Shown here piece after piece: positions 24,916 to 61,064 of a stretch of 64,000 nt of DNA. The position numbers and the translations under genes were made by a program. The DNA comes from Candidatus Shapirobacteria bacterium (GTDB lineage: Bacteria > Patescibacteriota > Microgenomatia > UBA12405), in NCBI GenBank assembly GCA_041665485.1, contig JBAYIT010000001.1, forward strand, positions 204,270 to 268,269. The letters are read 5' to 3'. Under the pieces are notes generated by a model, which was not told the DNA's origin, did not search any database, and worked only from the letters and a program-made list of their open reading frames with translations. Positions within the stretch are counted from its first letter, which is position 1; each line of letters begins with the position of its first letter.

Positions 24916-24965
24916 ATCCTAGTTCCTAGTTCCTAGATCATAGATCCTAGTTCCTAGATTTTGGA
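24916..24965. repeat. Family-C repeat (tagatcctagttcc…) in an intergenic position
   Basis: Same heptamer-based element that encodes 'SNIQDLRSK' inside genes at 25330-28365 and 41290-42020. Confidence 0.6.
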
Positions 24966-25325: not shown

Positions 25326-25353
25326 CTAACATCTAGGACCTAGCAACTAGGAT

Positions 25354-39000: not shown

Positions 39001-41522
39001 TCGGCGGTGATGGTGGCGCTTCCGCCGGTTATATTGGCGGTTAGATTTCTTAAAACCGAGAGGTCATTATTATTGACAGTGGAATTTCCGGTGTAAGTGG
39101 TGTCGTTGATAATATCTAACTTATTAGTGGGGCTGGTGGTGCCAAGGCCAAAATTGCCGGTGCCAAAAAAGCCGAAGTTATTGCCATTAAGATCGATTTT
39201 GGTGAGTTGGTTGAGAGTGCCACCGAGACCAACAGTTCGAGAAGTTTCAGTTAAGCCGTTGTTGAAAGTATAGGCACTGCCAAAAGCCAGAGCACCAAGA
39301 ATGTTTTTGTATAAATTGCCAGAGGCATCAGTAAAGACGGCGGTGGTGCCGGTGCCAGTAGAACCAAGGCCTAAACCACTAAAATTAACCGTACCACCAA
39401 CTCCCAAACTTCCTGTTCCCCCGACTTGGAGTCTGTAGGTAGGATTGGTGGTGCCGATACCAACATTGCCGATATTTGTAATTGTGACCCTATCGTTAGT
39501 TCCTAAAGCACCAGTGTTGTTAGAAAAGGTAAACGCCCCCGAATTACTATTATCAGCTCCAATTGTCCAAGCGTTTGCTCCCTGAGTGGTATCAAAATAT
39601 ATAGATGGGTCTCCGGCCAAACCTCCTGCAGTTTTAATTATAATTCCTGCGTTAGAATTAGCCGTGTTACTGGTATTTTGTATCGTCATTCCATTGTTGC
39701 CACCTGAGTTACTACCACCAACTGTGAATGCAGGTAATCCGTTTGCGTTTATGGTTACAGCTCCAGTGAAGTTGCCATCTCCAGCAACATTAAGAAGGGC
39801 AGTAGCGTGGGTACCACCAATACCTAATTTAGTGAAATTACCAGCACCATTAACGTCAAGAGTGTAGAGAGGGAGGGTGGTTCCAATTCCGACATTGCCG
39901 GATCCGTCGATAGTTAATCTTCGGGTAGCATTTGTATATAAACTAAATTTGTTGTTTCCGGCAACACCGATTAGTGCATTTGTGGCTGTTCCTGAATCAA
40001 AGCCCGCATCACTTCCCCAATAAGATAAAGCCGTACTACCGACTTTTAAATATTGATAGGTTCCACTGGCAGCTACGCCGTTGATGGTAATTGCACCTGA
40101 TACTTCTATTTTTGTAGTTGGGTTGGTTGTTCCGAGGCCGACTCGGCCAGTGGCGTAATCGAAATACATAACTTCAGTATTACCAATATTAAGTCTGGTA
40201 TTTTGGGTGAGGGCGCCGCCGAGGCCGAAAACATTAGTAGAGATAGCGGATAAACCATTGGTGGTGGAGTAAGTCGTGCCGATGGCGGTGTCGGAGAAAG
40301 CCAGAGAACCGAGAACACGGCGGGTGATAATGTTGGTGGATGGATCAATGAAGAGGGCGGTGGTGCCGGCGCCAACGATAGTGGAGTTTGAAAGGGTTAG
40401 AGCGCCACCAATGTAAACGTTGCCGGAGGCGCCAACGGAAAAACGAGTATTCAATTGAGTGTTGCCAACCCCTAAATCGTAGTTTTGAAATTGAAGAAAA
40501 TTGTAATTATTGGAATAGTTACTTCTGACGATGCCGGAATAAAGATTACCGGAAACCATGTTGGCGTCGGCTTCGGCTTGAACAAAGCCACCAACAGCAG
40601 GGGCGTTCATTTCAAAAGAAAGATCAAGAATGCCGCCAGCATCGGGGTTGATGGTGATGTTGCCACCACTGCCGTCGCTAGCTTTGAGGAGCATGGCTTG
40701 GCCTTCGATGCCAAAAGTGCCGGAAACTGATTTGATGGTGGGGGAGGTTTCGCCAAGGTTGAGGTTGCCAGAGTTATCAAAAACAGCGACGGTATTTTTG
40801 TAACCGATGCCGGAGGTGCCAAGGCCCAAACCCTGAAGAGTTTCGGAATTAAGGGCATAGGCGACGGTGGCAATTTGCTGGCGGGGGTCCATTACTTCGG
40901 TGCCGGCGGTAATTTCTAGCCAAACTTCGGCGTTTTCAGAGAAAACGCTGGGAGGGATTTCAGTGCCGTGAGTTTTGCCAATGACGACATTAAAAATGCC
41001 ATTGTCGTCGGGTTTAACAACTTGACTATTGCCGGTGCCGGAGGTGTAGAGAGAGGTGCCGGCGCCAAGCGTGCCATTGTTCCAGAGTTTAAAAATAATG
41101 CCGGTTTCGGAAGTGATGGGATTGCTGTAGGAATCGGTGAGACGGCCTTGAAAGGAGAGAATTCTGCCGGGGCGGATGGGGGAGGAGGTGGTGGAATAGG
41201 CAAGGTTTTTGCGGGCTTTGAGGATGGTTTGGGAATAGAGGCCGTAGGTGAGACCGGCGAATAATATGAGGAGGGTGGAGAGAACGAGATAACGACTAAA
41301 TGAGATCCTAGATGTTAGATCCTGGATCCTAGATTGGAGGTTGGATGGGGTTGGGGATGGTGGTTGGTAACTGGTAATAAACTTCTTTTTAATTAAGAAT
41401 TTTTTGAAGACGGAGATAGAGGAGAGCTTGCGGTTGATGGTGGCGGGGGAAAGATTTTGGGACTTTAAGTAGTCTTGGTAGGAGGAGAGACGAGAATGAT
41501 CGAAATACTCTTTGAGTTGCAA
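27021..41522 (-). CDS. Giant (4833 aa) membrane-anchored surface protein with tail-fibre-like repeats, an N-terminal integrase core-binding-like domain and the C-terminal 'WWIIN' domain
   Basis: Single uninterrupted ORF. N-terminus 'SYQDYLKSQNLSPATINRKLSSISVFKKFL' (tyrosine-recombinase SAM-like motif), then TM 'YLVLSTLLILFAGLTYGLY'. More than 4000 aa of G/T/S/N-rich repeats with 'GNVGIGTT.P.YKL.V.G'. Five 'SNIQDL(R/K)SK' motifs. C-terminus '…IDNPLDHNIDINWWIIN'. Confidence 0.8.
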   Translation of the reverse strand: MQLKEYFDHSRLSSYQDYLKSQNLSPATINRKLSSISVFKKFLIKKKFITSYQPPSPTPSNLQSRIQDLTSRISFSRYLVLSTLLILFAGLTYGLYSQTILKARKNLAYSTTSSPIRPGRILSFQGRLTDSYSNPITSETGIIFKLWNNGTLGAGTSLYTSGTGNSQVVKPDDNGIFNVVIGKTHGTEIPPSVFSENAEVWLEITAGTEVMDPRQQIATVAYALNSETLQGLGLGTSGIGYKNTVAVFDNSGNLNLGETSPTIKSVSGTFGIEGQAMLLKASDGSGGNITINPDAGGILDLSFEMNAPAVGGFVQAEADANMVSGNLYSGIVRSNYSNNYNFLQFQNYDLGVGNTQLNTRFSVGASGNVYIGGALTLSNSTIVGAGTTALFIDPSTNIITRRVLGSLAFSDTAIGTTYSTTNGLSAISTNVFGLGGALTQNTRLNIGNTEVMYFDYATGRVGLGTTNPTTKIEVSGAITINGVAASGTYQYLKVGSTALSYWGSDAGFDSGTATNALIGVAGNNKFSLYTNATRRLTIDGSGNVGIGTTLPLYTLDVNGAGNFTKLGIGGTHATALLNVAGDGNFTGAVTINANGLPAFTVGGSNSGGNNGMTIQNTSNTANSNAGIIIKTAGGLAGDPSIYFDTTQGANAWTIGADNSNSGAFTFSNNTGALGTNDRVTITNIGNVGIGTTNPTYRLQVGGTGSLGVGGTVNFSGLGLGSTGTGTTAVFTDASGNLYKNILGALAFGSAYTFNNGLTETSRTVGLGGTLNQLTKIDLNGNNFGFFGTGNFGLGTTSPTNKLDIINDTTYTGNSTVNNNDLSVLRNLTANITGGSATITADANSSIGVSNTTNLNFNHTVGNNSNNILIVGVNYQNSLTRTVSGIYWNGTPLTKATTASGTQTWADIWYLVAPTPGTYSIGITMSGQAASLVAGAASFYNVNQITPIGVATTASGMNTNLSIGTSSNASEIVFSTLSVNNVRTVTLGAGQTSLWNQGINQVTGVASYQIGAANTSSSYTINTLSIWAGATVSLQPATGGSLSILNPLVNFSSKCTESSGSCSDTANILNLSQLYTKATGTVFSIGSSGSGNLASLVSSNSSGNGLNLDIGSTSSSNYSLKITSGSGANTNLYIQANGSVGIGNTSPAYKLDVTGSGRFTTNLDVGGTLAVTGRSTFAQNLFVNAGGIGVTGNSSFTNNVGIGGTLTLSASTVAGSGTTALFIDSNNVVSKRALGALAFLDSTASTYNWIAKASSNQTISGGTTLSFTGLNGITSTSVGTSQITFGLGGTLTQNTFINTGTNNLYIMGVNNNTQALAITTAGNVGIGTTAPLYPLQVAGAGVFTKLGVGGTSTASIYTNADLSVGTTTTTASLNLSNTAIGGSSVAAFLSGNSGLIGYLDTSSWDKSGSDDRWFLQATGAGSTAIGVGVTVNFANGTNILNTISGSTVTIGTTNAPTFSASVFSPIFSNNGSALTLGHASGLTTILGSGITLTPNTSFTANVGIGGTLTLSASTVAGTGTTALFIDSNNVVSRRALGGLAFQDNTYISWMLAGNTGTAQQVGIGNTASILGYNGIGTSVSGTDQLSIGLGGTLTQNTFINTGANNLYIMGVNNNTQALAITTNGNVGIGTTSPYATFDIGGLITTPILSGSVPKVLISDNVDGISGVQMKNTSTGTNADFRFMVGDTTGQYLAFMVPGVNNNVASILGAARNANDFIINNPNGGTGRGLVIGTYGTNDVILGTNNTANVTIKSGGNVGIGTTAPLYPLQVAGAGVFTKLGVGGTDTNALYVSGNGNLTGNLSIGGTLAVTGRSTFAQNLFVNAGGIGVTGNSSFTNNVGIGGTLTLSASTVSGTGTTALFIDSNNVVSRRALNGLAFDGLLNLQAGTSMVVTGTGVGATISHADTSSQASSDNSNGIVIQDIGLDGLGHLTSLATVDLDSRYAQSANVSWMLAGSLGTAQSIGLGNTASFLAGSGIGTSISGTDALTITNTGVLSLTGTANQILANGTTATAQTGAVTLTLPQNIHTGATPLFAGLTISSGGIGVSGASVFGNTLSIGNTLTLTNVTANTLVRTNATNQLIGTSGTVNQLMHGDLSWGDVTLGTQTAGNYVSTIIGNSQIGVTGTAGEGVGVSLAIIGDSIGDSQLAFNTGQHLTTSSTPLFAGLTISAGGIGVSGASVFGNSLSVGTTLTTASLSVTGNGSVTGTLSVGNTLTATTAAKSPLFMGNGATVTFGNASYLTTIAGLGLTITPNTSFTANVGIGGTLTLSASTVAGTGTTALFIDSNNVVSKRALGGLAFQDNTYISWMLAGNTGTAQQVGIGNTASILGYNGIGTSVSGTDQLSIGLGGTLTQNTFINTGANNLYIMGVNNNTQALAITTNGNVGIGMTNPTSPFNVYSNSVTQATFNGWDPIGGAQAYNGSVAIGNNAAYQGLIHYNGNGVANLYIDNTYNSAVLGGIFFRTRTAGTPVDAMSILSAGNVGIGTTAPLYKFQVAGEGVFTKLGVGATHSTYSLFINSGGIGITGTSSFSANVGIGGTLTLSASTVAGTGTTALFIDSNNVVSKRALNGLAFDGLLNLQAGTSMVVTGTGVGATISHADTSSQASSDNSNGIVIQDIGLDGLGHLTSLATVDLDNRYAQSANVSWMLAGSLGTAQSIGLGNTASILGYNGIGTSISGTDQLSIGLGGTLTQNTNINLSSYNLSFLGTGNTQSLYLKANGNVGIGTTGPRVNLDIVGTSGVMIDNVASGNALLYLQGKSTNNSVINFRSNTSTSWSIGRDGSDSHKFKIGYGSETFASGVALVIDATGKVGIATTTPSYTLQVGGTGSLGVGGTVNFSGLGIGTTGVGTTAVFIDSSGNLYKNVLGAGAFTSGAGTLYTAGVGISLSSTNVFSNIGVTSILGTTNQITASNPTGAVTLSLPQNIHTGATPLFAGLTISSGGIGVSGASVFGNTLSIGNTLTLTNVTANTLVRTNATNQLIGTSGTVNQLMHGDLSWGDVTLGTQTTGNYATSNAEGGPALSLYGEDNRSIGPTEVNTSNLKFGFTAYNNNSAGPWADFLHLNSYLDGSGGNQNLLEFNKSSLGMRLYQGSFGSTAAYTTYKDIALVDNNPISGYLTKFTGTTATVSITNSLIYDSGTNIGLGTTNPLYKLHVTGEGVFTKLGVGGTSTASIYTNADLSVGTTTTTASLNLSNTAIGGSSVAAFLSGNSGLVGYLDTTAWDKNGANDFIAATNGLQSIGTSSVGLGGTLTQNTNIGVSSFGLSFLGINSNTQALYIASSGNVGFGTTAPSQKVDISGNLNLSGHLVGGDGTNAPANLINNGNFDYWNIGTSSIPDAWISNGGTFSRDTGYKSTYSLKMVDGGAWQGAKYTVPPRSTLTTARKYTLNFWYKSSSTNTLPLQLGVYDGTSYIVAYGNQTLIKDDAWHWQSTNFTIGDDKTISIFMLTNTGTSHAGDTDWIDSVSLYEGDQANAFSTNYNDYLKYGSVSMFGPLGIGATNSSYKLNVSGSANITTNLTIGGTFVSVGSTNTVTNLSADLLDGQHGSYYLNIGNTGDFVQNQFTADQTANLRINGNAMFGGNVGIGATSTAKLNVIGNGNFTTNLSIGGTLSVGSSATISANGIITGTKFVDIGNTAYYFNTSNSTSISDSSLSLYQSGSIRFNAVAVGSTLRHIVSNAATQIRGYSNGLLLASSTSTTGDITGWDNQLFLNSTGNVGIGTTAPLYKLHVNGDALISTRLGIGSTNALYLLNVGGTASFTNLHASGNVGIGTTAPTSSLHLYSTTGSANNPQLTLTSSPSSPGRYSPSIVFQNNDGSSAGWIGSASRITGGFERGSSWVNSALGFDVGNASAGLSRAMTITNYGNVGIGTTNPLYKLEVNGDALISTRLGIGSTNALYLLNVGGTASFTNLYTTGNVGVGTTAPGYTLDVNGIIKSNNTIYSLTTAGTTPKFILVETGRSTWTLSQPTTTSAFHIDQDGNSRLFIQNSTGNVGIGITNPTYKLQVVGNGYLSTSLSVGSSLIVAGGDIKQGGTDDLRLWAGSGNDFYFYKSDGSVSARIDVSTAAGAETLDQGFTGPNNSFAVYGTRLFSQSFTPQASGSLSKVTLQLWKVGAGSYNFSVQLQNCDGNQPNGTVVATSSNIANTSIGETASPGAEYSLTFSTKPYLQAGTKYCLVTTTSTGGDGSNYINVREKDSSSTYTGGQAGYYNGSVWDTASYTAVDMYFKQYYQNNYGSVLHIGSVDTANADLAENYPSTQNLSTGELVTFDLENTGHVLRAQAGSQKLVGVVSTNPGLLLGSSETSQNVYPIALSGRVPVKITLENGAISPGDPLTASTTIEGRAQKATTSGPIIGKALESSSSCSDPGNCTILALVQPSWFDPDTLLTLDTLGQIVTSPETNIQDPGSKIYHLTSSNGSAVTRLGQFSQALIANLKAGIINTSKLVSNDIETQTITPISNTGIGSTLKIGGDTEVIGSLFAQNIKTPSLNVDHLDSLTSNIQDLKSKTITAQDIGVTTLSANAITALTSNIQDLRSKDATISGILYADQIISREGNFGDLMTQKISALRDEVKKIIDTSTVTTPPEDVLLSQSENWLADISTGSAQITGSLALTDNLVVAGQLAVAGQAELADALISGTLQSGQIIIKDNLIETTASVLYIQPSKVGTINIMNNTLIIADNGDVTVNGNIYLNGTLTAQTATISGSLSTYLITASDIQTTSLTALTSNIQDLRSNKLTILPNVAIAQADPSESATQSAEIASNTTAGTTTLIAGQTEIIILNNQLTSASMVYLTPVGSTNNQVIYIKDKYIDPTSNIQDLKSSFTIAIDNPLDHNIDINWWIIN

Positions 41523-41568: not shown

Positions 41569-42025
41569 TTAATTTGTGGGTTGTGAATTTGTCCATGTGA
41601 TATATTGGCGTAAATCAGAGATGTAGTTTTTGATAGTTGAAGGGGTGGCATGGTGGGTGGAGAGATAGGTAGCAAACTGTGATATAAGTGCATCAGGGGT
41701 GGGTGGAGGCGGGGAGGCAAGAGAATGGCGAATTTTCTTGAGGGGATTGTGGTCAATCAATTTTTGGTCGAGGGCAAATTGGCAGAAAGAGGAAAGAGAT
41801 GCTAAATACCTCCGGTAGTTAGAATTGGCGGATACTTTGTTAACAAAATCGGAAATTACTTTGGAGTCAAATGGATTACCTTGGCCAACCGAGTCGAAAT
41901 AGGTATAGAGGTCGGAGAGGTAGTTGCGGATAGTGGAATCGGAGTAAGACTTGGATGAAAGCCAGGCACGATAGGAGTTAGAGATCTTAGATCTTAGATC
42001 TTGGATGTTAGATGTTGAGGACATG
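41569..42025 (-). CDS. Stand-alone protein made of integrase N-terminal SAM-like (core-binding) domains, with no catalytic domain
   Basis: 'YSDSTIRNYLSDLYTYF…NYRRYLASLSSFCQFALDQKLIDHNPLKKI' and a second 'ATPSTIKNYISDLRQYITW' match the XerC/D core-binding pattern LSP.TI..Y…L..F..F…NP. Starts 'MSSTSNIQDLRSK'; the ORF track used a TTG start at 42042. Confidence 0.6.
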
Positions 42026-42260
42026 GTTAGCGCCAGAGCCAAACAAAGGAGGTGGCAATGATTAGAAAGGGAATGAGCCGTTCAACTACCGGTTTTACCG
42101 AATATAAAATTTTAGCTTCAAAATTAGACTTTTTAGACATTGTTATCAGTTATTAATAATTAATAATTTAAATATCTACTATATTGAAAAAGCTGTCAAG
42201 AAGGGGAAATTAAGCATTAAATGATGTAGATAGATAGGATCAATTAAGATAGTTTTCAGT

Positions 42261-44264: not shown

Positions 44265-45266
44265 TTATTTGTCCTTATACTTGTTTTTGAGAGAATCGAG
44301 TTCTTTTTCTAGCTCTTCGATTTGAGCGCTAGGAGGGCCTTGGCGGGTGAGGAGTTTGACGATGGCAATGATGATGACGACAGCCAGAAGGGAGAGGATG
44401 ATGAGCTTCCAGGGGATAATCCAGAAGAAGAGAGTGGCGGTGAGAATACCGCCAGCGCTACCGTAGCCGGTAGTTAAATTAGCTTGATAACGGCCAAAGA
44501 GCCATTTGCGGTTTAATTGATTTTCGTAGGTGCGATTGGTGTAAGGAAAAATATTGACCGATTCTAAAGGTAGTTGAGCCGTTTGGCCATTGAGCCAGTT
44601 TTTAATAGTGATTTCGCCGATGGGAGCGATGTGAATATCGGAGAGGTTGTTGATGGTGGTTTTGAAATCAACCGGTCCGTACTCCTGAAAATTAGGAGCA
44701 GTAAATTGGCTAACTTTAGCTTCTTGATTGATTGGCCCGGCAACGGTGATGTAGATGAGGCTACCGACGTTAGTGAGAATGGTGGAGCCGGTTTGAGAGA
44801 GAACAGCTTCGTTGTTGGGAGAATGGAGGACCATGGCATAGTGGCCGCCGGGAGTAGCGTCGTTGGGAGCAATAACGGTTAAAATAAGTGATTTAGTTTC
44901 ACCCGGTTTGAGTTTAAGGTTGGTTTCGGAAACTTGGAGCCAATTAGAAGCGGCCCAGCGATTTTGTTCGGCTGACTTAGCATCGATTTGAGTGGGAGTG
45001 CCAATGTCATTGACGACAACGAAGTCTTTGGTGGAAGTGGTGATAAATCTTTCGACGTTGGATTCGTTTCTGACTTTGAGCTCTTTGGAAACAACTTCTC
45101 CCGGTTTAACGGTGATTTCCAGGCGGGGAGGAATGGCGGTTAGGCCAAGAGCCGACTGTGCGCGTATACCAGTCGGAATTTCCAATGACCAAAAAACAAT
45201 TTCCAAACAAATCACAAAAGCCAATTTCCAAAGAGAATTTGAGTATGAGTTTTGAGATTTGATCAT
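44265..45266 (-). CDS. DUF916/DUF3324-like (CscA-like) cell-surface protein with a C-terminal TM anchor
   Basis: 'LTAIPPRLEITVKPGEVVSKELKVRNESN' is a DUF916-type N-terminal domain. C-terminal TM 'LTATLFFWIIPWKLIILSLLAVVIIIAIVKLL' followed by a charged tail. The signal peptide is encoded by the family-B repeat. Confidence 0.5.
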   Translation of the reverse strand: MIKSQNSYSNSLWKLAFVICLEIVFWSLEIPTGIRAQSALGLTAIPPRLEITVKPGEVVSKELKVRNESNVERFITTSTKDFVVVNDIGTPTQIDAKSAEQNRWAASNWLQVSETNLKLKPGETKSLILTVIAPNDATPGGHYAMVLHSPNNEAVLSQTGSTILTNVGSLIYITVAGPINQEAKVSQFTAPNFQEYGPVDFKTTINNLSDIHIAPIGEITIKNWLNGQTAQLPLESVNIFPYTNRTYENQLNRKWLFGRYQANLTTGYGSAGGILTATLFFWIIPWKLIILSLLAVVIIIAIVKLLTRQGPPSAQIEELEKELDSLKNKYKDK

Positions 45267-45310
45267 TGGAGCTTGTTTGGAACTTGTAGATTTGTAATTT
45301 GTTTTTTAGG

Positions 45311-46771
45311 TTAAAAGGTTGCTGTAGCAGTATAGGTTAACTGATTTTCGTAATTGCCAGCGGGTTGAGTGCTGGAAGCAACTAAACGATAGCAAATATA
45401 GGCTTGTTCGGTGGCAGCGGGAGTACTGGCGTTACTCATGATAGATTGAGCTTGAGAATAACTTTTACCGAAAGCTTTGTAGAGAGAAGTGGAGCCGACC
45501 CCAACAGTGTTGGCGCTAATATTTTGTAGGGTGTAACCCCAGCTGGATTGGGTAACGTCGGTGACCCAGGTATTGCCAACAGAATAGGTGCAGGTGCCGG
45601 CATCGCAGTTGGTGTCGGGAATAGTGTTGCCGGTGCCAAAATCTTTCATTTGGTCGGTTTCATAGACAGTAACAACATAGCCGTTATCGGCATTGGTAAC
45701 ACAGGAAAGGCGTTGGGCGAGATTATTGAAGGCGGCTAGATTAAGAGAGCCGAAAGCGACGGCGGTAGCGGTGGTGTTGGCAGCATTGGAGCCGAGAGTG
45801 TTACCGCAAACGACGTTAGAAGCACTGGTGCCGACAGCGTCGACGTAAAAAGTAATTGAGGGATCGACAGTGGCGGTGACACGAACACTTTCAACAACAG
45901 CAATTTTGCCTTCGATGGTGTCATCGGTGATAATGGCATCGGTGTCGTCTAAATGGCGAATGAAGAAAGAGTAAGTATCGGCAGTGGAGTTGGCTTGACC
46001 TTCAGTGTGAGATAGAGCCGGAGCCGGATTAATAAGTTGACTACCGGAAGCTAGGGCTCGGCCGATAGTGACGGTTGCGCCAACTCCGACGGGGTTGGTG
46101 ACGCCGGCGGCCAGGTCGCAGAGAATGACGTGATAGCTATTACTATTAATAACGGCGGTGGTGCCAACGGAGGCGGTGCCAAAGGGGCAAGAAACGTCGG
46201 CAGCAGTTAGCCGTGTGCCAAGGCCGGCGGAGCCGGAGCTGGGAGTAGTGGCACCGAAGTCAAATCCTTGCTGATCAGGAATACCGTCGTTGTAAGTTTC
46301 TCCGGAGCGACTAGTGGCTTTGATTAAGAACTGCCAAGCACCGGCAGTTTTGTTTGATTGAGGAGTAAAGGAAATAGTGTGAATAGCAGAGCGGGTGGCG
46401 ATAACGGCGTTGCCAACAAACGAGGCGAGGTGGGAAACAGTGGTGCCGATTTGAAAAGTGGCAGTATTACCAAGACCATTAACAGTGTAGGTGTTGAGGG
46501 TGGTGGCGCCACTGGTGCCGATGGCAATAGTATCGCCAACAAAAAGATTGTTAGTAGTGTTGCTGGGATTGGCAGTAAGGGCAATTTTGAGGATGGTGTC
46601 GTTTATGGTGTTACCGGTGCCCAGACGGGCAAAATAAGAGAGTTGGGAGGTGGAAAGAGTGTCTTTAACGTTGATAGGGCGGACTGATTGAAGCTTTTGA
46701 GGGCGAAGAGAAATAAAAATAGAGGCAATAATAAAACAGGCTAGGGGTAAAAAAATTTTTTGATGTTTCAC
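45311..46771 (-). CDS. WxL-like surface protein, 486 aa
   Basis: Signal peptide. Thr/Gly/Ala-rich low-complexity body. The C-terminal '…PAGNYENQLTYTATATF' resembles the WxL-domain terminus (AG.Y…LTWTL…P). Confidence 0.45.
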   Translation of the reverse strand: MKHQKIFLPLACFIIASIFISLRPQKLQSVRPINVKDTLSTSQLSYFARLGTGNTINDTILKIALTANPSNTTNNLFVGDTIAIGTSGATTLNTYTVNGLGNTATFQIGTTVSHLASFVGNAVIATRSAIHTISFTPQSNKTAGAWQFLIKATSRSGETYNDGIPDQQGFDFGATTPSSGSAGLGTRLTAADVSCPFGTASVGTTAVINSNSYHVILCDLAAGVTNPVGVGATVTIGRALASGSQLINPAPALSHTEGQANSTADTYSFFIRHLDDTDAIITDDTIEGKIAVVESVRVTATVDPSITFYVDAVGTSASNVVCGNTLGSNAANTTATAVAFGSLNLAAFNNLAQRLSCVTNADNGYVVTVYETDQMKDFGTGNTIPDTNCDAGTCTYSVGNTWVTDVTQSSWGYTLQNISANTVGVGSTSLYKAFGKSYSQAQSIMSNASTPAATEQAYICYRLVASSTQPAGNYENQLTYTATATF

Positions 46772-47604
46772 TTTGGTGATTTAATATTAGTAGTGGGCCG
46801 AAAGGTTGTCAACAGGCGAATTATTAGGAGAAAAGTAATTAGGATCAGGGGAGAAAGAGGGAGGATGTAAAAATTAACCGATGTTTGGCCAAGAGTGGCA
46901 GTATAAAGCCCTGGCCAAAAGGGTGGTTTAAGAAAGCAATTAACCGGTAATTTTTGAGAATCGAGGCAGCGAAAGGGGCGGGAATTATTGGCTAAAATGT
47001 TATCTGGGGCCAGAGTGAGGCGGGAAATTTCCAGATTATTTTTGGTGATAATAATTTGATCTTGAATTTTAGTGAAATGGGAAGTGGAATTAGTGATTTG
47101 GCCGGAAAAGTTTAGAGGAGTAAGAAATATGTCTTTGATTTGAGGGGAGATAGTAAAGATGGTGGTGGTTTTCTGGGGCAGATTTTGGGAGGGAGAAAAG
47201 GAGAGGAGGAGGTGGGAGCCAATACGGGCGGAAACAGAGGTGGAGTTGCCGTCGGCGACGGCCGATGGCTCTTGAGATATAAATAGGGTGTAGTAGGCAT
47301 CGGTGGGAGCGAAGTTGGTATCAGAGGAAATTTTGAGAACCAGTTGTTGACTTTGGCCTGGTCCGAGGCGGAAAGGTTGACCAAGCCGAAGGTCGCTATT
47401 ATTGAGTTCAAAATAAATGCCGGGGGGAGTGGTAACAGAGTCGTAGGTAACCGAGCCATTGGAGCCTTTGGGGAGCCAAGGGAGAATGGAGGTGGTGACT
47501 ATTTGGGGCGAATCGGAGAGATTTTGGATGTCAAAGGCTTGGGTGACTTTAATTCCGGGCTTGATGACTAGTTCGACTTGGGCAGGGGAGATGGAGAGTT
47601 TCAT
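46768..47604 (-). CDS. DUF916/DUF3324-like (CscA-like) protein lacking an N-terminal signal peptide
   Basis: Starts directly with 'MKLSISPAQVELVIKPGIKVTQAFDIQNLSD', the DUF916-type domain. C-terminal TM 'FYILPLSPLILITFLLIIRLL' followed by a basic tail. ATGA overlap with the GxxExxY gene. Confidence 0.45.
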   Translation of the reverse strand: MKLSISPAQVELVIKPGIKVTQAFDIQNLSDSPQIVTTSILPWLPKGSNGSVTYDSVTTPPGIYFELNNSDLRLGQPFRLGPGQSQQLVLKISSDTNFAPTDAYYTLFISQEPSAVADGNSTSVSARIGSHLLLSFSPSQNLPQKTTTIFTISPQIKDIFLTPLNFSGQITNSTSHFTKIQDQIIITKNNLEISRLTLAPDNILANNSRPFRCLDSQKLPVNCFLKPPFWPGLYTATLGQTSVNFYILPLSPLILITFLLIIRLLTTFRPTTNIKSPK

Positions 47605-47885
47605 ACAGATTTACACGAATTTATAACGGATTTACACTGATCTTTAGCGGATTCACACGGATCCATTGTCCACACCAGTCTCTTGATGTAGAGCTTGGAA
47701 GCACCGAAGTTAATCAAAAGTCCGAGTTGATAATTGGTTGATTTTAGATAATGAAGAAGTTGTTGTTTGGTTTGATAGACTTGCTCTTTGTGACCAAAAC
47801 CAAGACTGTTGTAGACATTAAACACTGCCCCCCGAATGGAGTAGGACAAGTCGGCGTAAATCAGCTTTTTATCTGTGGTAATCAT
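47601..47885 (-). CDS. GxxExxY-family protein
   Basis: 'LIYADLSYSIRGAVFNVYNSLGFGHKEQVYQTKQQLLHYLKSTNYQLGLLINFGASKLYIKRLV' matches TIGR04256. The gene sits between the WxL and DUF916 genes with taATG / ATGA overlaps. Confidence 0.6.
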   Translation of the reverse strand: MITTDKKLIYADLSYSIRGAVFNVYNSLGFGHKEQVYQTKQQLLHYLKSTNYQLGLLINFGASKLYIKRLVWTMDPCESAKDQCKSVINSCKSV

Positions 47886-49423: not shown

Positions 49424-50053
49424 ATGAGGAAATTGGTTTTGACCGATGCGATGTTAGTGCTGGGATTGGGGCTAATTGTGGCCGGAATGGCGATCAATTT
49501 AAAATCTTCGAATACTTCTCAATCAAAAAAACTAGAGATAATTAAGGCCGGGGTATCAGCTACGCCCACCCCGGCAAGCTCGTTTTTAGTGGATGTGTCA
49601 GGGGAAGTGATTAGGCCTGGAGTTTACAAACTAGGGGGTGAGGCACGGATTAATGATGTGTTGGTGGCCTCGGGTGGGCTGACGGCTAAGGCGGATAGAG
49701 AATGGGTGGAGGCCAATATTAATCGAGCGGAAAAAGTGAGGGATGGAATGAAGATTTTCGTGCCGAAAATAAATCAACAAGTTCCAAAAAATCCGTCTGA
49801 GACGGACTCAACTTCGTTTCGCAATTTCCAAACAAGTTCCACGTACCAAGTTCCAAGTTCCAAAACAATTAGTTTAAATACAGCGAGTTTGGCACAGTTG
49901 GATAGTTTGCCAAAAATTGGGCCGGTAATCGGGCAAAGAATTATTGATTATCGAACTAAAAATGGGGGGTTTAAAAATGTTGAGGAGTTGAAATTAGTGA
50001 CGGGAATTGGGGATAAAATGTTTGAGGAAATTCGGGATTTAATTACTTTGTAA
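49424..50053 (+). CDS. comEA: Competence protein ComEA (SLBB domain plus helix-hairpin-helix)
   Basis: N-terminal TM. SLBB 'VDVSGEVIRPGVYKLGGEARINDVLVASGGLT…GMKIFVP'. HhH 'LNTASLAQLDSLPKIGPVIGQRIIDYR…'. The family-A repeat is inserted in-frame in the linker. Confidence 0.85.
   Translation: MRKLVLTDAMLVLGLGLIVAGMAINLKSSNTSQSKKLEIIKAGVSATPTPASSFLVDVSGEVIRPGVYKLGGEARINDVLVASGGLTAKADREWVEANINRAEKVRDGMKIFVPKINQQVPKNPSETDSTSFRNFQTSSTYQVPSSKTISLNTASLAQLDSLPKIGPVIGQRIIDYRTKNGGFKNVEELKLVTGIGDKMFEEIRDLITL
49791..49838. repeat. Family-A palindromic repeat (ccgtctgagacggactc…cttcg.ttcgcaatttccaaac) in-frame inside comEA
   Basis: Copies occur at 60181-60232 and 60388-60428, plus a partial copy at 51887-51912. 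When in-frame, each encodes 'PSETDS(T/A)S(F/L)RNFQ'. Confidence 0.7.
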
Positions 50054-50189: not shown

Positions 50190-50990
50190 ATGAGAGAGTA
50201 TTTTTTGGAAGTAGTTTACAGGAGTCTACCTCCACAAGAGGCGGGGTTAATGGCGGGGATGGTGTGGGGAGACAGAAGTGGGTTTTCTCTCGAATTAACC
50301 AACAGCTTGAAGGATAGTGGGTTGTGGCATTTGGTGGTGGTGTCGGGAGCCAACGTGATGATTTTGGCTCGGATGTTGGTAGAATTATTGGCGCCTCTAA
50401 TTGGCCGAAAAAAAGCAATTGGGGTGATGATGGTTATGACTTGGGGGTATGCCGGAATTGTGGGGTGGGAGATGCCGGTGGTGCGGGCGATAATTCTGAT
50501 GTCGATTTACTATTGGGCCCAAGTCTTGGGGAGAAAGTTTGATGTTTGGCGGTCTCTCATGTTGACTGCTATTTTGGTGTTGGTGGCTGACCCGGAGGCG
50601 GTAGGGAGTTTGAGTTGGTGGTTATCGGTTGTCGCCTTTATTGGAGTAATAACTGGGAAAAATTTAAATACTTTTTGGCAGACGATTTGGGTGGGGGTGT
50701 GGGTGACGCCACTTTTGGCAGTGGCCATAGGCAAAATAAGTTGGATATCGCCGTTGGCCAATGTGGCAGTATTGTTTATGGTGGAAGTAATAACTGTAAT
50801 AGGGTTGATAGGGACATTAACGGGGGGTTGGCTATTGTGGGCGGCAATGCCGTTACTGAGGTGGTTGCTAGTGGTGGCCGGGGCAGCAGGGAAGGCAGGG
50901 GTGGTAAATTATCAATTTAATTGGCTGATGGTTATTGGTTGGTATAGTCTACTTTTTTGGTATTTATGGAAAAACAAAATTAAATCTTAA
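50190..50990 (+). CDS. comEC: ComEC/Rec2, N-terminal 'competence' channel domain
   Basis: 'GLWHLVVVSGANV' corresponds to the ComEC 'HLLAISGLHV' motif. Multiple TM helices. Confidence 0.75.
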   Translation: MREYFLEVVYRSLPPQEAGLMAGMVWGDRSGFSLELTNSLKDSGLWHLVVVSGANVMILARMLVELLAPLIGRKKAIGVMMVMTWGYAGIVGWEMPVVRAIILMSIYYWAQVLGRKFDVWRSLMLTAILVLVADPEAVGSLSWWLSVVAFIGVITGKNLNTFWQTIWVGVWVTPLLAVAIGKISWISPLANVAVLFMVEVITVIGLIGTLTGGWLLWAAMPLLRWLLVVAGAAGKAGVVNYQFNWLMVIGWYSLLFWYLWKNKIKS

Positions 50991-51089: not shown

Positions 51090-51101
51090 GTGTATTGTTT
51101 T

Positions 51102-51854
51102 ATGAAACTTAAAATAAGTTGGTTGGTAGTTGCTGTCTGGCTCTTGATGGTTGGTTGGGTGGCGTGGGGGGAATTTAAAAAACCAAAACAGGTGGTAATA
51201 TTTTGCAATGTCGGGCAGGGGGATATGGCGATTGTGATTGACGGCGGATTTCAGATGATAGTTGACACCGGCCCGACAGGGAGAGCTGGTGTTGAGTGTC
51301 TTGAACGAAATTTACCAATTTGGGACAGAAAAATTGAAGTAGCGATTATTACCCATGGAGATGCTGATCATAGTGGTGGGTTAGTAGAAATTCAAAAAAG
51401 TTACTTGGTGGAAAAAATAAATGTGAGTGAAGGTGATGTGGTGAGATATGGTGAGGTGGAGTTTAGAGTGATTAGCGGGTCTCTCGACTTTGCTCGGGAT
51501 GAAAATGAGGGGAGTATTATTGGAGTTTTGGAATATGGGGATAAAACTTTCTACATGATGGCGGATGCGACGGCGGAGATGGAACAGGGACTGGTTTGGC
51601 GACAGAAGTTAGAATCTACGAATTTACGAATCTACGAATCTAGAGTTTTGAAGGTGAGTCATCATGGCTCGAGGGACGGGACGACGAAAGAATTGTTGGA
51701 GACGATAAAACCGGCAGAGGCGGTGATTAGTGTGGGGAAAAATAATTACGGCCATCCGGCGACGGAGACAATAAAAAGACTGGAGGAGTTTGAAGTGAGG
51801 GTGAGGAGGACGGATCGGGAGGGGGATATCACTTATAAAATTTTAAATTTTTAA
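51102..51854 (+). CDS. comEC: ComEC/Rec2, C-terminal metallo-β-lactamase domain
   Basis: TM helix, then 'VIFCNVGQGDMAIV' and 'HGDADHSGG' (the HxHxDH motif). The ORF-track start GTG 51090 lies inside the palindromic element, so ATG 51102 was preferred. Confidence 0.75.
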   Translation: MKLKISWLVVAVWLLMVGWVAWGEFKKPKQVVIFCNVGQGDMAIVIDGGFQMIVDTGPTGRAGVECLERNLPIWDRKIEVAIITHGDADHSGGLVEIQKSYLVEKINVSEGDVVRYGEVEFRVISGSLDFARDENEGSIIGVLEYGDKTFYMMADATAEMEQGLVWRQKLESTNLRIYESRVLKVSHHGSRDGTTKELLETIKPAEAVISVGKNNYGHPATETIKRLEEFEVRVRRTDREGDITYKILNF

Positions 51855-51968
51855 TTTGAAATTTTTAGTCAAAACTAAATGTTTTAATCCGTCTGAGCCG
51901 GACAAGTTTTAAAATTTAAGAATTTAAAATTGATTAAAAATTAAAAATTGTAAATTAAAAATTAGACT

Positions 51969-53070: not shown

Positions 53071-55623
53071 ATGGCGGAAGAAAATAAATTTAAAGAAATT
53101 GAATCTAAATGGCAGGATTATTGGAATAAAAATCCTGATTTATATTCGGCTAAAGATAATTCGGATAAACCTAAAAAATATGTTTTAGTGGAGTTTCCGT
53201 ACCCGTCTGGATCGGGGTTACATATCGGTCATGCTTTTTCGTTTACTGGGGGAGATGTCTATGCTCGGTTTAAACGGATGCAGGGGAATAATGTGATGTT
53301 TCCAATGGGTTGGGATGCTTTTGGCTTACCGACAGAAAACCATGCAATAAAAATGAAACGCAGGCCACAGGAGGTAACTAAGGAAAATACCGATAATTTT
53401 AGAGAGGAGATGAAAAAGCTGGCTTTTTCGTTTGATTGGAGCCGGGAAGTAAATACAACCGACCCTGATTATTATAAATGGACACAGTGGATATTTATAA
53501 AATTATTCGAGAAGGGGTTGGCATATAAGCAAGAAATGCCAATTAACTGGTGTCCTAGTTGTAAAATTGGGTTAGCAAACGAGGAAGTCATCGATAATAA
53601 ATGTGAGAGATGTGGGGCGGAGGTATCCAGACGTAATATTAGCCAGTGGGTGGTAAAAATTACCGATTATGCGGATAGATTAATTGATGGTTTGAAAGAG
53701 ACGGATTTTATTGAAAAAGTAAAGCAGGCACAGATTAATTGGATTGGACGCTCGCAGGGAGCTCGCATTAAGTTTCAAGTTAAAAGTTTGTCAAGTTTAT
53801 CAAGTGTTAGAAAGTTAGAAGTATTTACCACCAGGGCGGATACGTTGTGGGGAGTAACATTTATGGTGATCAGCCCGGAACATCCATTCGTCGCTTCGCT
53901 CCTTAAGTCGAAAGTTATAAAGTTAGAAAGTTTGAAAGCAGTTGAAGATTATGTAAATCAGGCGAGGAAAAAGAGTGATTTAGAGAGGGCGGAATTGCAG
54001 AAAGAAAAGACAGGAGTGTTTACTGGGGTGTATGTGGTTAATCCGGCTAATGGCAAAGAAATTCCTCTGTATGTGGCCGATTACGTGTTAATGGGTTATG
54101 GAACAGGGGTGGTGATGGGTGTGCCGGCGCACGATCAGAGGGATTGGGATTTTGCCAAGAAATATAATTTGGAAGTAATTCCGGTGATAGAAGATGGTGG
54201 ACATGATTATGTAAAAGAAGCAATGGTGAGTGTTGATAAAGGCAAGATGATTAATTCCGGGTTTGCAACAGGAATGGAGGTGAAAGAAGCGATCAATAAG
54301 GTTAATGAGTGGGTGGAAAAGGAGGGGATAGGCGAGAGAACCAATATGTATCATTTACGAGATTGGATATTCAGCCGGCAACATTATTGGGGAGAACCTA
54401 TACCAATGATTTTTTGCGAAAGTTGTGCAAAAAATCAGAATCTAGAATCTAGAATCAAGAATCAAGAAGAAAACAGAAAAAAAATAAATGCAGGGTGGTA
54501 TCCGGTTCCGGAAGAGCAATTGCCGATTAAATTGCCCGAGGTAGAGGCTTATGAACCGACAGATACAGGGGAGTCGCCACTGGCGAAAATGACTGATTGG
54601 GTTAAAACGACATGTCCTAAGTGTGGTGGGGAGGCAAAAAGAGAGACAGATACCATGCCCAACTGGGCTGGATCAGATTGGTATTTTCTAAGATACTGTG
54701 ATCCTGTTAATGATACAGAATTAGCTAGTCAGGAAAAGATAAAATACTGGATGCCGGTGGATGTTTATGTGGGTGGAGACGAACACAATACTTTGCATCT
54801 ACTTTATTCTAGATTTATATATAATTTTCTATTTGACTTGGAGGTAGTACCAACACCAGAGCCATATAAAATAAGAATGTCACACGGTGTCATACTAGGT
54901 CCAGATAGCCAGAGGATGAGCAAATCGAGAGGAAATGTGGTGGTGCCATCAGTAGTGGCGGACAAGTACGGAGTTGATGTGCTAAGGTTGTATTTGATGT
55001 TTATGGGACCATTCGATTCGACAATGGTATGGAATGAAAAAACGGTGATGGGAGCAAAAAGGTTTCTTGATCGCTTCGCTCAATTTATCAAAATCCAATT
55101 TTCAATTTTCAATGAAACTGTAGAAAGTAGCAAGGAAGTTAAGGTGATAATTAATAAATTGGTGGCGGGAGTAACGAGGGATTTGGAGAGTTTTGGCTAT
55201 AATACGGCCATAGCAAAGCTTATGGAAGCTTTGCATAAATTTTCAAAATCCAATTTTCAATTTTCAATTGAGGACATAAAAACGCTGATTAAGTTATTGG
55301 CGCCGTTGGCGCCGTACACTGCAGAAGAATTGTGGAGTCAAGTTAGAGACAAGGATGATGATGATGTTTCGGTGCATGTGGCGCCGTGGCCGAGGGTGGA
55401 GGAGAAGTACTTGGTGGAGGAGACTGTGACTATGCCGGTGATGGTAAATGGGAAAGTGAGAGAGCAGATCGTAGTTGATAGATCGTCGATCGTAGATAAG
55501 AAGAAAATAGTTAAAATGGCGAAGGAGAAAGAGAAGATAAAAAAGTGGTTGGAGGAGTGTGAAATATTAAAGGAAATCTATGTTCCAGGGAAACTAGTGA
55601 ACTTTGTTGTCAGTACAAAGTAG
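53071..55623 (+). CDS. leuS: Leucyl-tRNA synthetase
   Basis: 'HIGHAF' (HIGH motif), 'RMSKSRGN' (KMSKS motif) and a Zn-binding 'CERCG' editing-domain layout. 850 aa. Carries in-frame repeat insertions (see findings). Confidence 0.95.
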   Translation: MAEENKFKEIESKWQDYWNKNPDLYSAKDNSDKPKKYVLVEFPYPSGSGLHIGHAFSFTGGDVYARFKRMQGNNVMFPMGWDAFGLPTENHAIKMKRRPQEVTKENTDNFREEMKKLAFSFDWSREVNTTDPDYYKWTQWIFIKLFEKGLAYKQEMPINWCPSCKIGLANEEVIDNKCERCGAEVSRRNISQWVVKITDYADRLIDGLKETDFIEKVKQAQINWIGRSQGARIKFQVKSLSSLSSVRKLEVFTTRADTLWGVTFMVISPEHPFVASLLKSKVIKLESLKAVEDYVNQARKKSDLERAELQKEKTGVFTGVYVVNPANGKEIPLYVADYVLMGYGTGVVMGVPAHDQRDWDFAKKYNLEVIPVIEDGGHDYVKEAMVSVDKGKMINSGFATGMEVKEAINKVNEWVEKEGIGERTNMYHLRDWIFSRQHYWGEPIPMIFCESCAKNQNLESRIKNQEENRKKINAGWYPVPEEQLPIKLPEVEAYEPTDTGESPLAKMTDWVKTTCPKCGGEAKRETDTMPNWAGSDWYFLRYCDPVNDTELASQEKIKYWMPVDVYVGGDEHNTLHLLYSRFIYNFLFDLEVVPTPEPYKIRMSHGVILGPDSQRMSKSRGNVVVPSVVADKYGVDVLRLYLMFMGPFDSTMVWNEKTVMGAKRFLDRFAQFIKIQFSIFNETVESSKEVKVIINKLVAGVTRDLESFGYNTAIAKLMEALHKFSKSNFQFSIEDIKTLIKLLAPLAPYTAEELWSQVRDKDDDDVSVHVAPWPRVEEKYLVEETVTMPVMVNGKVREQIVVDRSSIVDKKKIVKMAKEKEKIKKWLEECEILKEIYVPGKLVNFVVSTK

Positions 55624-56117: not shown

Positions 56118-56190
56118 GTATCCCCAGGTGGAAACGAACCACCATTTCAGGTTTAGGAAACCCGCGTTCTATCCATTGAACTATAGGGAC
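56118..56190 (-). tRNA. tRNA-Arg (anticodon CCT)
   Basis: Manual cloverleaf: acceptor GTCCCTA/TGGGGAT, D-arm GTTC-AATGGATA-GAAC, anticodon stem CGGGT/ACCTG, loop TTCCTAA, T-arm GGTGG-TTCGTTT-CCACC. No encoded CCA. Confidence 0.7.
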
Positions 56191-56285: not shown

Positions 56286-56358
56286 TCGGGGACGCGGGAT
56301 TCGAACCCGCAACCTCACGATCCCGAACCGTGCGCGCTACCAGTTGCGCTAGTCCCCG
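56286..56358 (-). tRNA. tRNA-Pro (anticodon CGG)
   Basis: Manual cloverleaf: acceptor CGGGGAC/GTCCCCG, D-arm GCGC-AACTGGTA-GCGC, anticodon stem CACGG/TCGTG, loop TTCGGGA, T-arm GCGGG-TTCGAAT-CCCGC. Confidence 0.7.
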
Positions 56359-59579: not shown

Positions 59580-60091
59580 TACATTCCAAAATCTTAACTT
59601 GTAATATTTTGGAATAATTTCTAATTTCCAATTTCTAATTTCCAAAAAAAGACAATATAAATCTAAATTAGAAATAAGAGATAAGAGATAAGAATTAAGA
59701 TAGTTTCTGTTGATATATAGATAAATAGTTTGAGTAAAACAGTTGTTCAATATGATTAGTAATTGGTAATTAGTAATTGGTAATTGGTAACTTATAATAA
59801 GTTTGGCGAAGAATAGGTGATATAGTTATGTAAATAGACTTATAAAGTGATAGTTTTTGGGGCGAATTTTAGCTTATAATGGTGAAAAATTAAGAATTAT
59901 AGAGAGATTTGCTAAAAAAAATTTAAGAATTTAAAAATTTAAGAAAATGGATTGGTTTGAACTAGAGAGGAAAGTGGAGTTTGATATAGTTTTATTAAAA
60001 AAATAGATAAAATTTTAAATTTTAAATTTTAAATTGAGGCTGAAGATAGCTAGTTTTTATAATATTTTAGTTTTGGCAGGAGGGAGAGGGA

Positions 60092-61006
60092 GTGCTAAGG
60101 GTTTATAATCATAATATGAGAAGTGGGTTTAAAGCTTGGGATTTGTGGGGAGTACCCCTCTTTGTAGGTACAAAGAGGGAAATTTTTCCGTCTGAGACGG
60201 ACTCCGCTTCGCTTCGTAATTTTCAACCATTTTGGATTGCGACGGTCAATCCGGAACATGTGATGAAGGCGGTTGAGGATAAGAGCTATATGGAGTTGTT
60301 GAACAAGACGGATATAAATGTGATGGATGGGATTGGTCTCCTGTGGGCTAAAGCCCTGCAGGAGAAGTTCCAAATTACAAAAAACAATTTCTCCGCCAGA
60401 GGCGGACTCCGCTTCGCTTCGCAAACAAGTTCTAAAAAACAATTTCCAAATTTACAAACTATTTTGAAAAAGTTATGGATTGGGTTTTGGGTGGGGATAG
60501 AAATTTTGGGAGGGAAACATAGGGAGGGGTTGATAGCGGGAAGTGAGTTGATGAAGGAAATGATTGAGGAGGCGGGAAGAACGGGGAAGAAGGTCTTTTT
60601 ATTGGGGGGGTGGGGAGACCGAGCCGCCGTTGCGGCTCGAAATTTTAAATTTTTAATTTTTAATTTTAAAAATAATTTGAAAATAGAAACGTGCGCGGGG
60701 GAGCCGGTCGAGTCAAACTCGATGGTAATTGAAAAAATAAATAAGTTTCAGCCGGATTATTTGTTTGTGGCCTATGGGATGAAGAAACAGGAGGAGTGGA
60801 TTTTGAAAAATAAAGATAAATTGAAAGTGGGGATGGTGATGGGGGTGGGGCGGAGCTTTGACTACTATAGTGGCGACCTAAAAATAGCGCCAAAATGGGT
60901 GAGAAGAATGGGATTAGAGTGGCTTTACAGCCTGATTCAGGAGCCTAAACGTTGGCGCCGTCAGCTGGCGTTGGTGAGGTTTGTGGGGAGGGTGATTTTG
61001 AGTTGA
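60092..61006 (+). CDS. WecB/TagA/CpsF-family glycosyltransferase carrying three in-frame repeat insertions
   Basis: 'IATVNPEHVMKA', 'GIGLLWA', 'KVFLLGG', 'GVGRSFDYYSGDLKIAPKWVRRMGLEWLYSLIQEP'. Insertions at about 60172-60235, 60358-60470 and 60640-60690 add 'REIFPSETDSASLRNFQ', 'QITKNNFSARGGLRFASQTSSKKQFPNLQ' and 'RNFKFLIFNFKNN'. Confidence 0.65.
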   Translation: MLRVYNHNMRSGFKAWDLWGVPLFVGTKREIFPSETDSASLRNFQPFWIATVNPEHVMKAVEDKSYMELLNKTDINVMDGIGLLWAKALQEKFQITKNNFSARGGLRFASQTSSKKQFPNLQTILKKLWIGFWVGIEILGGKHREGLIAGSELMKEMIEEAGRTGKKVFLLGGWGDRAAVAARNFKFLIFNFKNNLKIETCAGEPVESNSMVIEKINKFQPDYLFVAYGMKKQEEWILKNKDKLKVGMVMGVGRSFDYYSGDLKIAPKWVRRMGLEWLYSLIQEPKRWRRQLALVRFVGRVILS

Positions 61007-61007
61007 A

Positions 61008-61031
61008 AAGCCTGCCTGCCGGCAGGCAGGT
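61008..61031. terminator. Perfect 20-bp palindrome cctgcctgccggcaggcagg between convergent gene ends; candidate bidirectional terminator
   Basis: 9-bp GC-rich stem. The 'cttttc' run is weak on the minus-strand side and the plus side has 'tccaaaaatg'. Confidence 0.35.
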
Positions 61032-61064
61032 CCAAAAATGTTCTTTGAGAGGGGATTTTGGCCT

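Follow-up and report, generated by a model that had tools for sequence, protein, structure and literature searches.

The 64,000 nucleotides analysed here (the window) come from a contig of a Candidatus Shapirobacteria bacterium, a member of the Microgenomates in the candidate phyla radiation (CPR), and carry at positions 60092-61006 of the plus strand a glycosyltransferase gene of the WecG/TagA/CpsF family, called tagA in the following. The open reading frame (ORF) starts with GTG, is uninterrupted and encodes 304 amino acids. Within it lie repeats of two kinds: tandem arrays with a period of 7 nt, and a 30-nt stem-loop module, here named the A-core, which occurs twice in tagA and once more in the unrelated gene comEA. 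An earlier account made from the letters alone (the sequence-only reading) had proposed that repeated DNA lies in frame inside an intact gene, and this is borne out, with the module recurring in comEA. The features in and around tagA are:

60156-60179, plus strand: coding hairpin of 10 bp (PLFVGTKRE), followed directly by AAATTTTT and A-core copy 1
60181-60226, plus strand: site 1, in place of the sequence coding for the native helix alpha-1; residual AATTTT-type flanks surround A-core copy 1
60187-60216, plus strand: A-core copy 1, TCCGTCTGAGACGGACTCCGCTTCGCTTCG, in site 1; read as PSETDSASL
60365-60391, plus strand: left heptamer-type array of site 2 (left half of 'family B' in the sequence-only reading)
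60392-60421, plus strand: A-core copy 2, TCCGCCAGAGGCGGACTCCGCTTCGCTTCG, in site 2; equal to the cross-lineage consensus and read as SARGGLRFAS
60422-60459, plus strand: right heptamer/14-mer array of site 2 (right half of 'family B'); AAAAAACAATTTC recurs at 60379 and 60434
60620-60639, plus strand: GC coding hairpin of 8 bp (RAAVAAR), followed directly by the AAATTTT array
60640-60685, plus strand: site 3, an array of the (AAATTTT)n type in which variant units of 6 to 8 nt avoid TAA in the reading frame; encodes NFKFLIFNFKNNLK
61010-61034, unstranded: hairpin CCTGCCTGCCGGCAGGCAGG after the tagA stop codon, of the same hairpin family as one in site 2 of the relative L047

Judged by its sequence and its predicted structure, tagA is an intact and presumably working gene, no pseudogene. 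The product matches PF03808 in a profile search (E 9e-43), scores 121.6 bits against TIGR00696 (cut-off 69) and matches TagA of T. italicus (7mpk) with E 2e-37. All 34 invariant columns of a 120-sequence alignment are present, and the claim of a glycosyltransferase with intact catalytic motifs was correct. In the alignment to 7mpk, residues T51, D79 and Q233 correspond to what we take to be Thr37, Asp65 and Gln167 of the T. italicus enzyme. An AlphaFold2 model built with 120 homologues has a predicted local distance difference test score (pLDDT) of 88.8 and a predicted template-modelling score (pTM) of 0.87, and a Foldseek search with it finds TagA/TarA structures at target-normalised TM-scores of 0.81-0.87. 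The gene order PEGA protein, MreB, TagA is retained in all six relatives whose contigs reach far enough.

Assemblers can be misled by low-complexity repeats, and one could suspect an assembly artefact here, or a pseudogene in decay. We give this reading almost no weight. The ENA contig ERZ27249449 k141_1025756 (411,674 bp) carries the tagA sequence, with a gene call that is also 304 amino acids long, and the NCBI/JGI protein P0001 (296 amino acids), from a separate 410,903-bp contig of a Candidatus Shapirobacteria metagenome-assembled genome (MAG), matches at 100% identity across the 97% of the ORF that aligns. The tagA cores are thereby present in two assemblies of one population. In addition, L050, a Logan contig that stems from a separate run, encodes a ComEA identical to that of the window. 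As for decay, the reading frame is uninterrupted, every invariant residue is kept and the model is confident and TagA-like. The sequence-only reading had named pseudogenes in relatives as an outcome that would speak against it; the orthologues found are intact and syntenic.

The A-core consists of a 6-bp stem and a 3-nt loop followed by the tail CTCCGCTTCGCTTCG. Part of it can be followed as the 18-mer GGACTCCGCTTCGCTTCG, which occurs exactly twice in the window, at 60199 and 60404, both times in tagA (0 expected). The 'family A' of the sequence-only reading is in this sense a real module, although of its two insertions in tagA the one at site 1 is a replacement (see below). Its extension to comEA also held, with a full 30-nt core. 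The supposed perfect palindrome at its centre did not: CCGTCTGAGACGG forms a stem of 5-6 bp around a 3-nt loop, and copy 2 has CCGCCAGAGGCGG instead, a compensatory change from T:A to C:G. The stem reads CCGTC/GACGG in copy 1 and in the comEA copy, and CCGCC/GGCGG in copy 2. Reading frames differ as well. The reading PSETDS[AT]S[LF] holds for copy 1 and the comEA copy, and for these two of the three copies the claim that the module always encodes PSETDS.S.RNFQ is right, but copy 2 is shifted by one frame and read as SARGGLRFAS. In the frame of copy 2, the T..A variant of the core would yield TGA. The consensus A-core is free of stops in all six frames, and since its 30 nt equal ten codons, the frame is kept wherever it lands.

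In the roughly 82 kb of the source contig that were surveyed there are three full cores, all of them intragenic and two of them in tagA; the chance of finding two of three inside one stretch of 915 nt is about 0.03. No further core was found in the approximately 18 kb flanking the window. In the RNA structure prediction proposed earlier, no structure beyond the 6-bp stem folds better than shuffled sequence, save for the site 2 region taken as a whole (z = -3.0) and for the hairpin behind the stop codon. Searches of viral contigs, plasmids and Rfam gave no match to the A-core.

The third copy, in comEA, provides a comparison between a filled and an empty site. The features in question are:

49776-49791, plus strand: shorter array to the left of the core
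49792-49821, plus strand: A-core in the ComEA linker, read as PSETDSTSF; these 30 nt are absent from the orthologue at locus L053
49822-49870, plus strand: (CAAGTTC)n-type array following the core
51888-51903, unstranded: degenerate A-like hairpin TCCGTCTGAGCCGGAC within an intergenic heptamer spacer

The closest relative's ComEA (P0122 at locus L053, 69% identical) agrees base for base in the flanks and lacks exactly the 30 nt; the core sits where two pre-existing 14-nt units meet, CCAATTTCCAATAA|CCAATTTCCAAACA. The direct repeats flanking the cores looked like a target-site duplication, but this candidate was dropped, as the empty comEA site already has them as units of its array. The A-core is thus a precise presence/absence difference of 30 nt between array units, and the target is not duplicated. 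In one of two further comEA orthologues from close relatives (P0127 and P0138) the linker holds a GC-rich insertion of seven residues, IPVGRGQ, which suggests that other small modules may use the same linker site. Downstream of comEA, two adjacent plus-strand ORFs, at 50190-50990 and 51090-51854, share the domains of ComEC between them (Competence, then metallo-beta-lactamase).

For tagA itself, segment lengths at the three sites were measured against 119 orthologues, and a codon alignment and a scan for identity at lag 7 were made on seven syntenic orthologues. Site 1 comprises 23 residues for a median of 22, which leaves no net insertion; site 2, with 51 residues for a median of 28, is the longest of all; and site 3 has 29 for a median of 25, or four codons more. 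The net gain over the median orthologue is about 28 residues, and the whole protein has 304 amino acids against a median of 285. The earlier estimate of three insertions adding about 60 residues was too high: the figure of 60 is reached only against the 244-residue T. italicus enzyme, and this difference is mostly clade-wide, residues 89-148 of the window TagA matching just nine residues of T. italicus TagA. The AT-rich third insertion exists as an (AAATTTT)n array at 60640-60685, but it is heptamer DNA that brings only the four extra codons. In all seven orthologues, high identity at lag 7 is confined to the positions of window residues 30-42, 89-120 and 182-203, and the units differ.

At site 1, distant orthologues have a normal, non-repetitive helix (VLKKVEDWL), while repeats of similar length are found in the three closest relatives: the window has the A-core, L042 has GATTTAA/GAAGTAA and L045 has (AATTTCY)n. 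Because different repeats of similar length stand in place of the native helix, site 1 is best described as a replacement. At site 2, heptamer-like arrays are found in all seven orthologues, and in L047 they are joined by an in-frame hairpin, CCTGCCGGCAGG (MPAGRQVS). At site 3 the unit is (GAGTTAC)x3.5 in L042 and L045, (GAATTAC) in L047, (AAAAATC) in L043 and of the AATTTTC type in L048; in L046 the site is non-repetitive and reads FFKKKYPTLKV, as in canonical TagA.

The repeat sites are predicted to be peripheral in the TagA model. A helical hairpin specific to the clade (helices 81-103 and 121-139) has site 2 at its tip, with the peptide of the core in the loop at a pLDDT of 62-68, and at site 1, where helix alpha-1 is expected, the model is of low confidence (65). 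Confidence is low only at these two places. Site 3 is modelled at a pLDDT of 85-92 and contributes a helix end, a loop and a strand.

The arrays are not specific to tagA. Further examples in the window are:

9609-9655, plus strand: 'family B'-like in-frame array in RadA, KKQFPNKSQFPNSKL
54437-54468, 55080-55113, 55238-55269 and 55466-55497 (span 54437-55497), plus strand: four in-frame arrays in LeuRS
60010-60035, unstranded: intergenic array, (AAATTTT)x3.7, lying upstream of tagA and sharing its unit with site 3

Tandem Repeats Finder reports dozens of period-7 arrays in the window. In our own scan there are 22 arrays of at least three units at this period, none in local shuffles and almost none at the other periods between 4 and 12. 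The self-identity of non-coding DNA has its peaks at lags of 7, 14 and 21 nt, with 0.353 at the first of them for a baseline of about 0.295. The vocabulary of units is small: AAATTTT, AATTTCY, AGATCTT, AGATCGT, GAATCTA, GAGTTAC, AAAAATC, CAAGTTC and ATTGGTA. Genes and spacers of the same or of sister genomes share such units, as with GAATTAC in L047 (at 10505 and 12525) and AAATTTT in the window (at 60640 and 60010). With this in mind 'family B' is no discrete element; it is heptamer/14-mer array DNA of the CAAnTTC and AAACAAT types, which is also found in RadA and comEA. What had been taken for a B–A–B nesting of two inserted repeat families is an A-core between array units, and both B and the AT-rich stretch are heptamer arrays.

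Arrays inside genes break their periodicity where a perfect repeat would give an in-frame stop, for example by AGAATCT becoming AGAATCA in LeuRS or by the units of 6 to 8 nt in tagA site 3. Consensus units that are free of stops make up 5-6 of 9 in genes against 7 of 36 strand orientations between genes (p 0.04-0.01). In LeuRS (53071-55623, plus strand), part of the conserved VNGKxR...V strand region at the C-terminus is encoded by the array of AGATCGT units at 55466-55497. A unit length that is no multiple of three, in a gene for cell-envelope polymer synthesis, brings to mind the phase variation that heptanucleotide repeats drive in Haemophilus, with gain or loss of units switching a surface glycopolymer on and off. 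Such a role for the tagA arrays is very unlikely: they are imperfect and have at most 4.4 units, equivalent arrays lie in LeuRS and RadA, genes that a cell could not switch off without harm, and all seven orthologues are in frame.

The A-core is also found far outside this genome. A scan of metagenome contigs with an exact pattern gave 23 loci, one copy each, in hosts with 35-71% GC. Internal in-frame copies occur in YchF, where the core is embedded as NIENWNL-RSEAESASGG-KIENL with AATTTTC heptamers alongside, and in PurC (from an organism with 62% GC), a VirD4/HerA-like ATPase and triosephosphate isomerase. In at least six genes it lies directly after the start codon, in the order ribosome-binding site, spacer, ATG and then CGAAAC...; hosts of this type include ribosomal protein S6, heliorhodopsin, an SdpI-family protein and a Berkelbacteria ORF. 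The Bacteroidales MAG JADJHD01 has 27 cores at nine loci, all intergenic, some of them as 39-nt tandem units, interleaved with (CACATCT)n and (AATTCTC)n heptamers. Since these cores too sit among heptamers, the association of core and arrays is not specific to the CPR. In some hosts (L047 13926-13957 and L032 2430-2475) an outer inverted repeat, GGTGC ... GCACC, brackets the core and is followed by CACCTTCRG, which suggests a longer variant of the element. In a high-GC group (L021, L023-L025, L028, L030, L034, L037 and L039) the core variant CCGCCTGAGGCGGACTCGCCTTCGGCTCGG lies within compound GC-rich repeats of the CCCTTCGACAGGCTCAGGGCGAGCGG type; the L021-L039 group was left out of the frame statistics, long ORFs being unreliable in such repeats. 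Full-text literature searches found no earlier description of such repeats in CPR bacteria.

Among 14 independent intragenic cores, ten are read in the reverse frame as RSEAESASGG (p about 1e-5). There is therefore a frame bias in the wider sample, though not in the window, and the fixed frame claimed by the sequence-only reading survives only in this form, given the two frames used within this genome. The bias could mean that the encoded peptides themselves are selected, as flexible or disordered loops or as new N-termini that modulate proteins such as TagA and ComEA. The N-x-L-[KR]-[VI] pattern, which the arrays at site 3 keep despite their different units, and the helical hairpin extended by site 2 would fit. 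Against this stand the two core frames just mentioned, the lack of peptide conservation between orthologues and the abundance of the same DNA in spacers, and purifying selection on what a protein tolerates would explain the frame bias equally well. We consider selection for the peptides improbable.

A somewhat better case, though still one that we rate as rather unlikely, can be made for hairpins and arrays being selected DNA or RNA cis-elements whose translation is a side effect, for instance intragenic pause or terminator sites, binding sites for nucleoid proteins or linked to methylation, or elements of mRNA stability. Hairpins followed by T-rich arrays are found at 60156-60186 and 60620-60667 and come out as terminator-like in a scan, tagA holds three of the 11 distinct GC-rich hairpins (stem of at least 6 bp) in the 64 kb, the near-identity of the core across phyla fits a conserved recognition partner, and the core lies repeatedly right behind an ATG. 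However, terminator-like hits number 2 against 1.3 in shuffles, which is no excess, folding z-scores are mostly unremarkable and Rfam gives no match. Units and even the presence of the core vary between close orthologues at the same site, and the orientation of the core relative to its host gene varies too.

Several families of small bacterial repeats invite comparison. Rickettsia palindromic elements (RPEs), with which the sequence-only reading drew its analogy, are about 150 bp long, have a palindromic core and lie in frame in unrelated housekeeping genes at positions compatible with the fold (PMC10969869). The A-core likewise lies in frame in unrelated genes (TagA, ComEA, YchF, PurC, S6) at sites that the fold tolerates. 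In contrast to RPEs, it has only 30 nt and a 6-bp stem; it is read in at least three frames (two in the window and a third in the wider sample), where RPEs encode a conserved peptide in one frame; and it ranges from CPR bacteria to Bacteroidales, within heptamer arrays, where RPEs are confined to Rickettsia. The analogy is good for behaviour and fails for size and conserved peptide, and the A-core is no member of the RPE family.

[quoted passage not shown] The period-7 arrays of the window resemble them in being far above chance and of several unit types, and differ in lying in a CPR genome, in frame in TagA, LeuRS, RadA and ComEA, at orthologous sites. Small dispersed repeats (SDRs), reported from Nostocaceae only, are 21-27 nt long and insert precisely; SDR5 inserts inside HIP1 (PMC4390886; PMC5861425). 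The A-core is comparably very small, was inserted precisely between heptamer units and is nested in arrays in CPR and Bacteroidales. In-frame coding insertion, on the other hand, is no described hallmark of SDRs, and the likeness meant here is one of description. SDRs, the 'very small mobile repeated elements' of Elhai et al. (2008), reportedly carry hairpins and are said to be nested in other repeats, heptamer arrays included.

Repetitive extragenic palindromic (REP) sequences, together with the mosaic and hairpin-forming arrangements called BIMEs (bacterial interspersed mosaic elements) and REPINs (REP doublets forming hairpins), are short imperfect palindromes of about 20-40 nt, dispersed, partly in tandem clusters and mostly extragenic (PMC3116915). 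The A-core is also a short, imperfect and dispersed palindrome, with three copies here and 27 in the Bacteroidales MAG, where they are extragenic, but its tandem copies are direct and not inverted pairs, its CPR copies are intragenic, and no REP-associated tyrosine transposase (RAYT, a Y1 HUH transposase) was found in the roughly 82 kb. [quoted passage not shown] By analogy, then, the A-core and the arrays appear RPE-like in behaviour and closest in kind to the cyanobacterial STRR and SDR repeats.

The explanation that we prefer, with a probability of roughly 60%, is that selfish or neutral, very small repeats are tolerated at peripheral sites of a working enzyme. Three peripheral sites of tagA would have been occupied by repeat DNA typical of the spacers of this lineage, in two components, period-7 arrays and the 30-nt A-core, both presumably transcribed and translated as tolerated filler. 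Turnover of the arrays would come from slipped-strand mispairing and from exchange among them, with selection purging versions that bring stops, frame shifts or a broken fold. The A-core, for its part, may spread as a non-autonomous, very small copy-and-paste repeat targeting heptamer arrays or (A/T)TG sites, and the bias towards RSEAESASGG in the wider sample would reflect which insertions proteins tolerate.

A number of points weigh against this explanation. The survey of about 82 kb (41 ORFs of the window and the gene calls of the flanking 18 kb) found no transposase, RAYT or reverse transcriptase, so that mobility rests on one filled/empty comparison and on the distribution of the core. 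The survey covered no more than three full cores of this genome, the folding energy of their hairpin is unexceptional, and covariation in it amounts to one double compensatory change. The scan pattern was exact, and the wider sample is consequently biased to near-identical copies. A core that is nearly identical in hosts with 35-71% GC is hard to explain as neutral junk and suggests sequence-specific recognition or function. Finally, the arrays at site 3 encode a confidently modelled, structured segment, so they are not merely filler.

A more far-reaching proposal is that A-core and heptamer arrays are the two halves of one repeat system that crosses phyla (CPR Microgenomates, Berkelbacteria, Bacteroidales and scattered others) and edits coding DNA in three ways, by frame-neutral insertions of ten codons, by replacements that preserve length, and by new N-termini through insertion after the ATG. 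This is a tentative idea, which we hold to be possible but on balance doubtful. Because no transposase-like partner is visible, it implies an undescribed, sequence-specific copy-and-paste mechanism.

Elsewhere in the window, two tRNA genes on the minus strand (56119-56190 and 56286-56358) lie in a spacer that is rich in tandem repeats of 7 to 9 nt. Three genes of PF05635 (23S rRNA intervening-sequence protein, bAvd-like) lie at 21258-21632 (plus strand), 24954-25325 and 26567-26908 (both minus strand), each bordered by heptamer arrays; the second is flanked by inverted repeats of 36 nt made of TAGATCC-type arrays (24910-24945 and 25324-25359, 89% complementary), in the manner of a small cassette. 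A link between the repeats and PF05635/PDDEXK_3 genes was considered and is unsupported after a weak test, in which the neighbours of the Bacteroidales arrays turned out to be ordinary housekeeping genes. The minus-strand ORF at 41569-42042, with an AGATCTT array close to its beginning, has only a phage-integrase SAM-like N-terminal domain, and a short one at 47601-47885 partially matches PD-(D/E)XK_3; the two resemble what is left of small selfish genes. Between them, long minus-strand ORFs of 333 and 486 amino acids at 44265-46771 (L049 4917-7264) have no Pfam match; ENA calls several small plus-strand genes there and the coding assignment is therefore uncertain. A giant minus-strand ORF (27021-41522; L051 1-4913) encodes 4,833 amino acids with many internal repeats of 48-300 nt, and hairpins with TAGATCT arrays behind them lie close to one of its ends (27924-27944 and 28291-28309). 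A second giant gene, of 11,461 amino acids, is called just outside the window. At the other end, a large serine recombinase (1220-2782, minus strand) adjoins a KAP-family P-loop NTPase (3457-6321, plus strand), and the region 1220-6321 may be part of an integrated element.

As read from its sequence and from the TagA model, the locus is a case showing that very small repeats can apparently rewrite coding sequence without breaking the protein. To our knowledge, neither a mechanism nor a function has so far been established for the STRR repeats (described since 1990) and the SDRs (2008). CPR bacteria and Bacteroidales, in which the same architecture is found, would supply independent lineages for comparison, and for phylogenetic profiling towards the genes responsible. 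Units that are not multiples of three can evidently persist in essential genes (TagA, LeuRS, RadA) and may even encode structured segments. For annotators, RSEAESASGG, PSETDSASLR, NFQFSNF and YDLRI in CPR proteins mark repeat DNA and are not conserved motifs, and such peptides make orthologues look more divergent than they are. For the organisms themselves, such repeats may offer bacteria with very small genomes a route to fast change of protein sequence.

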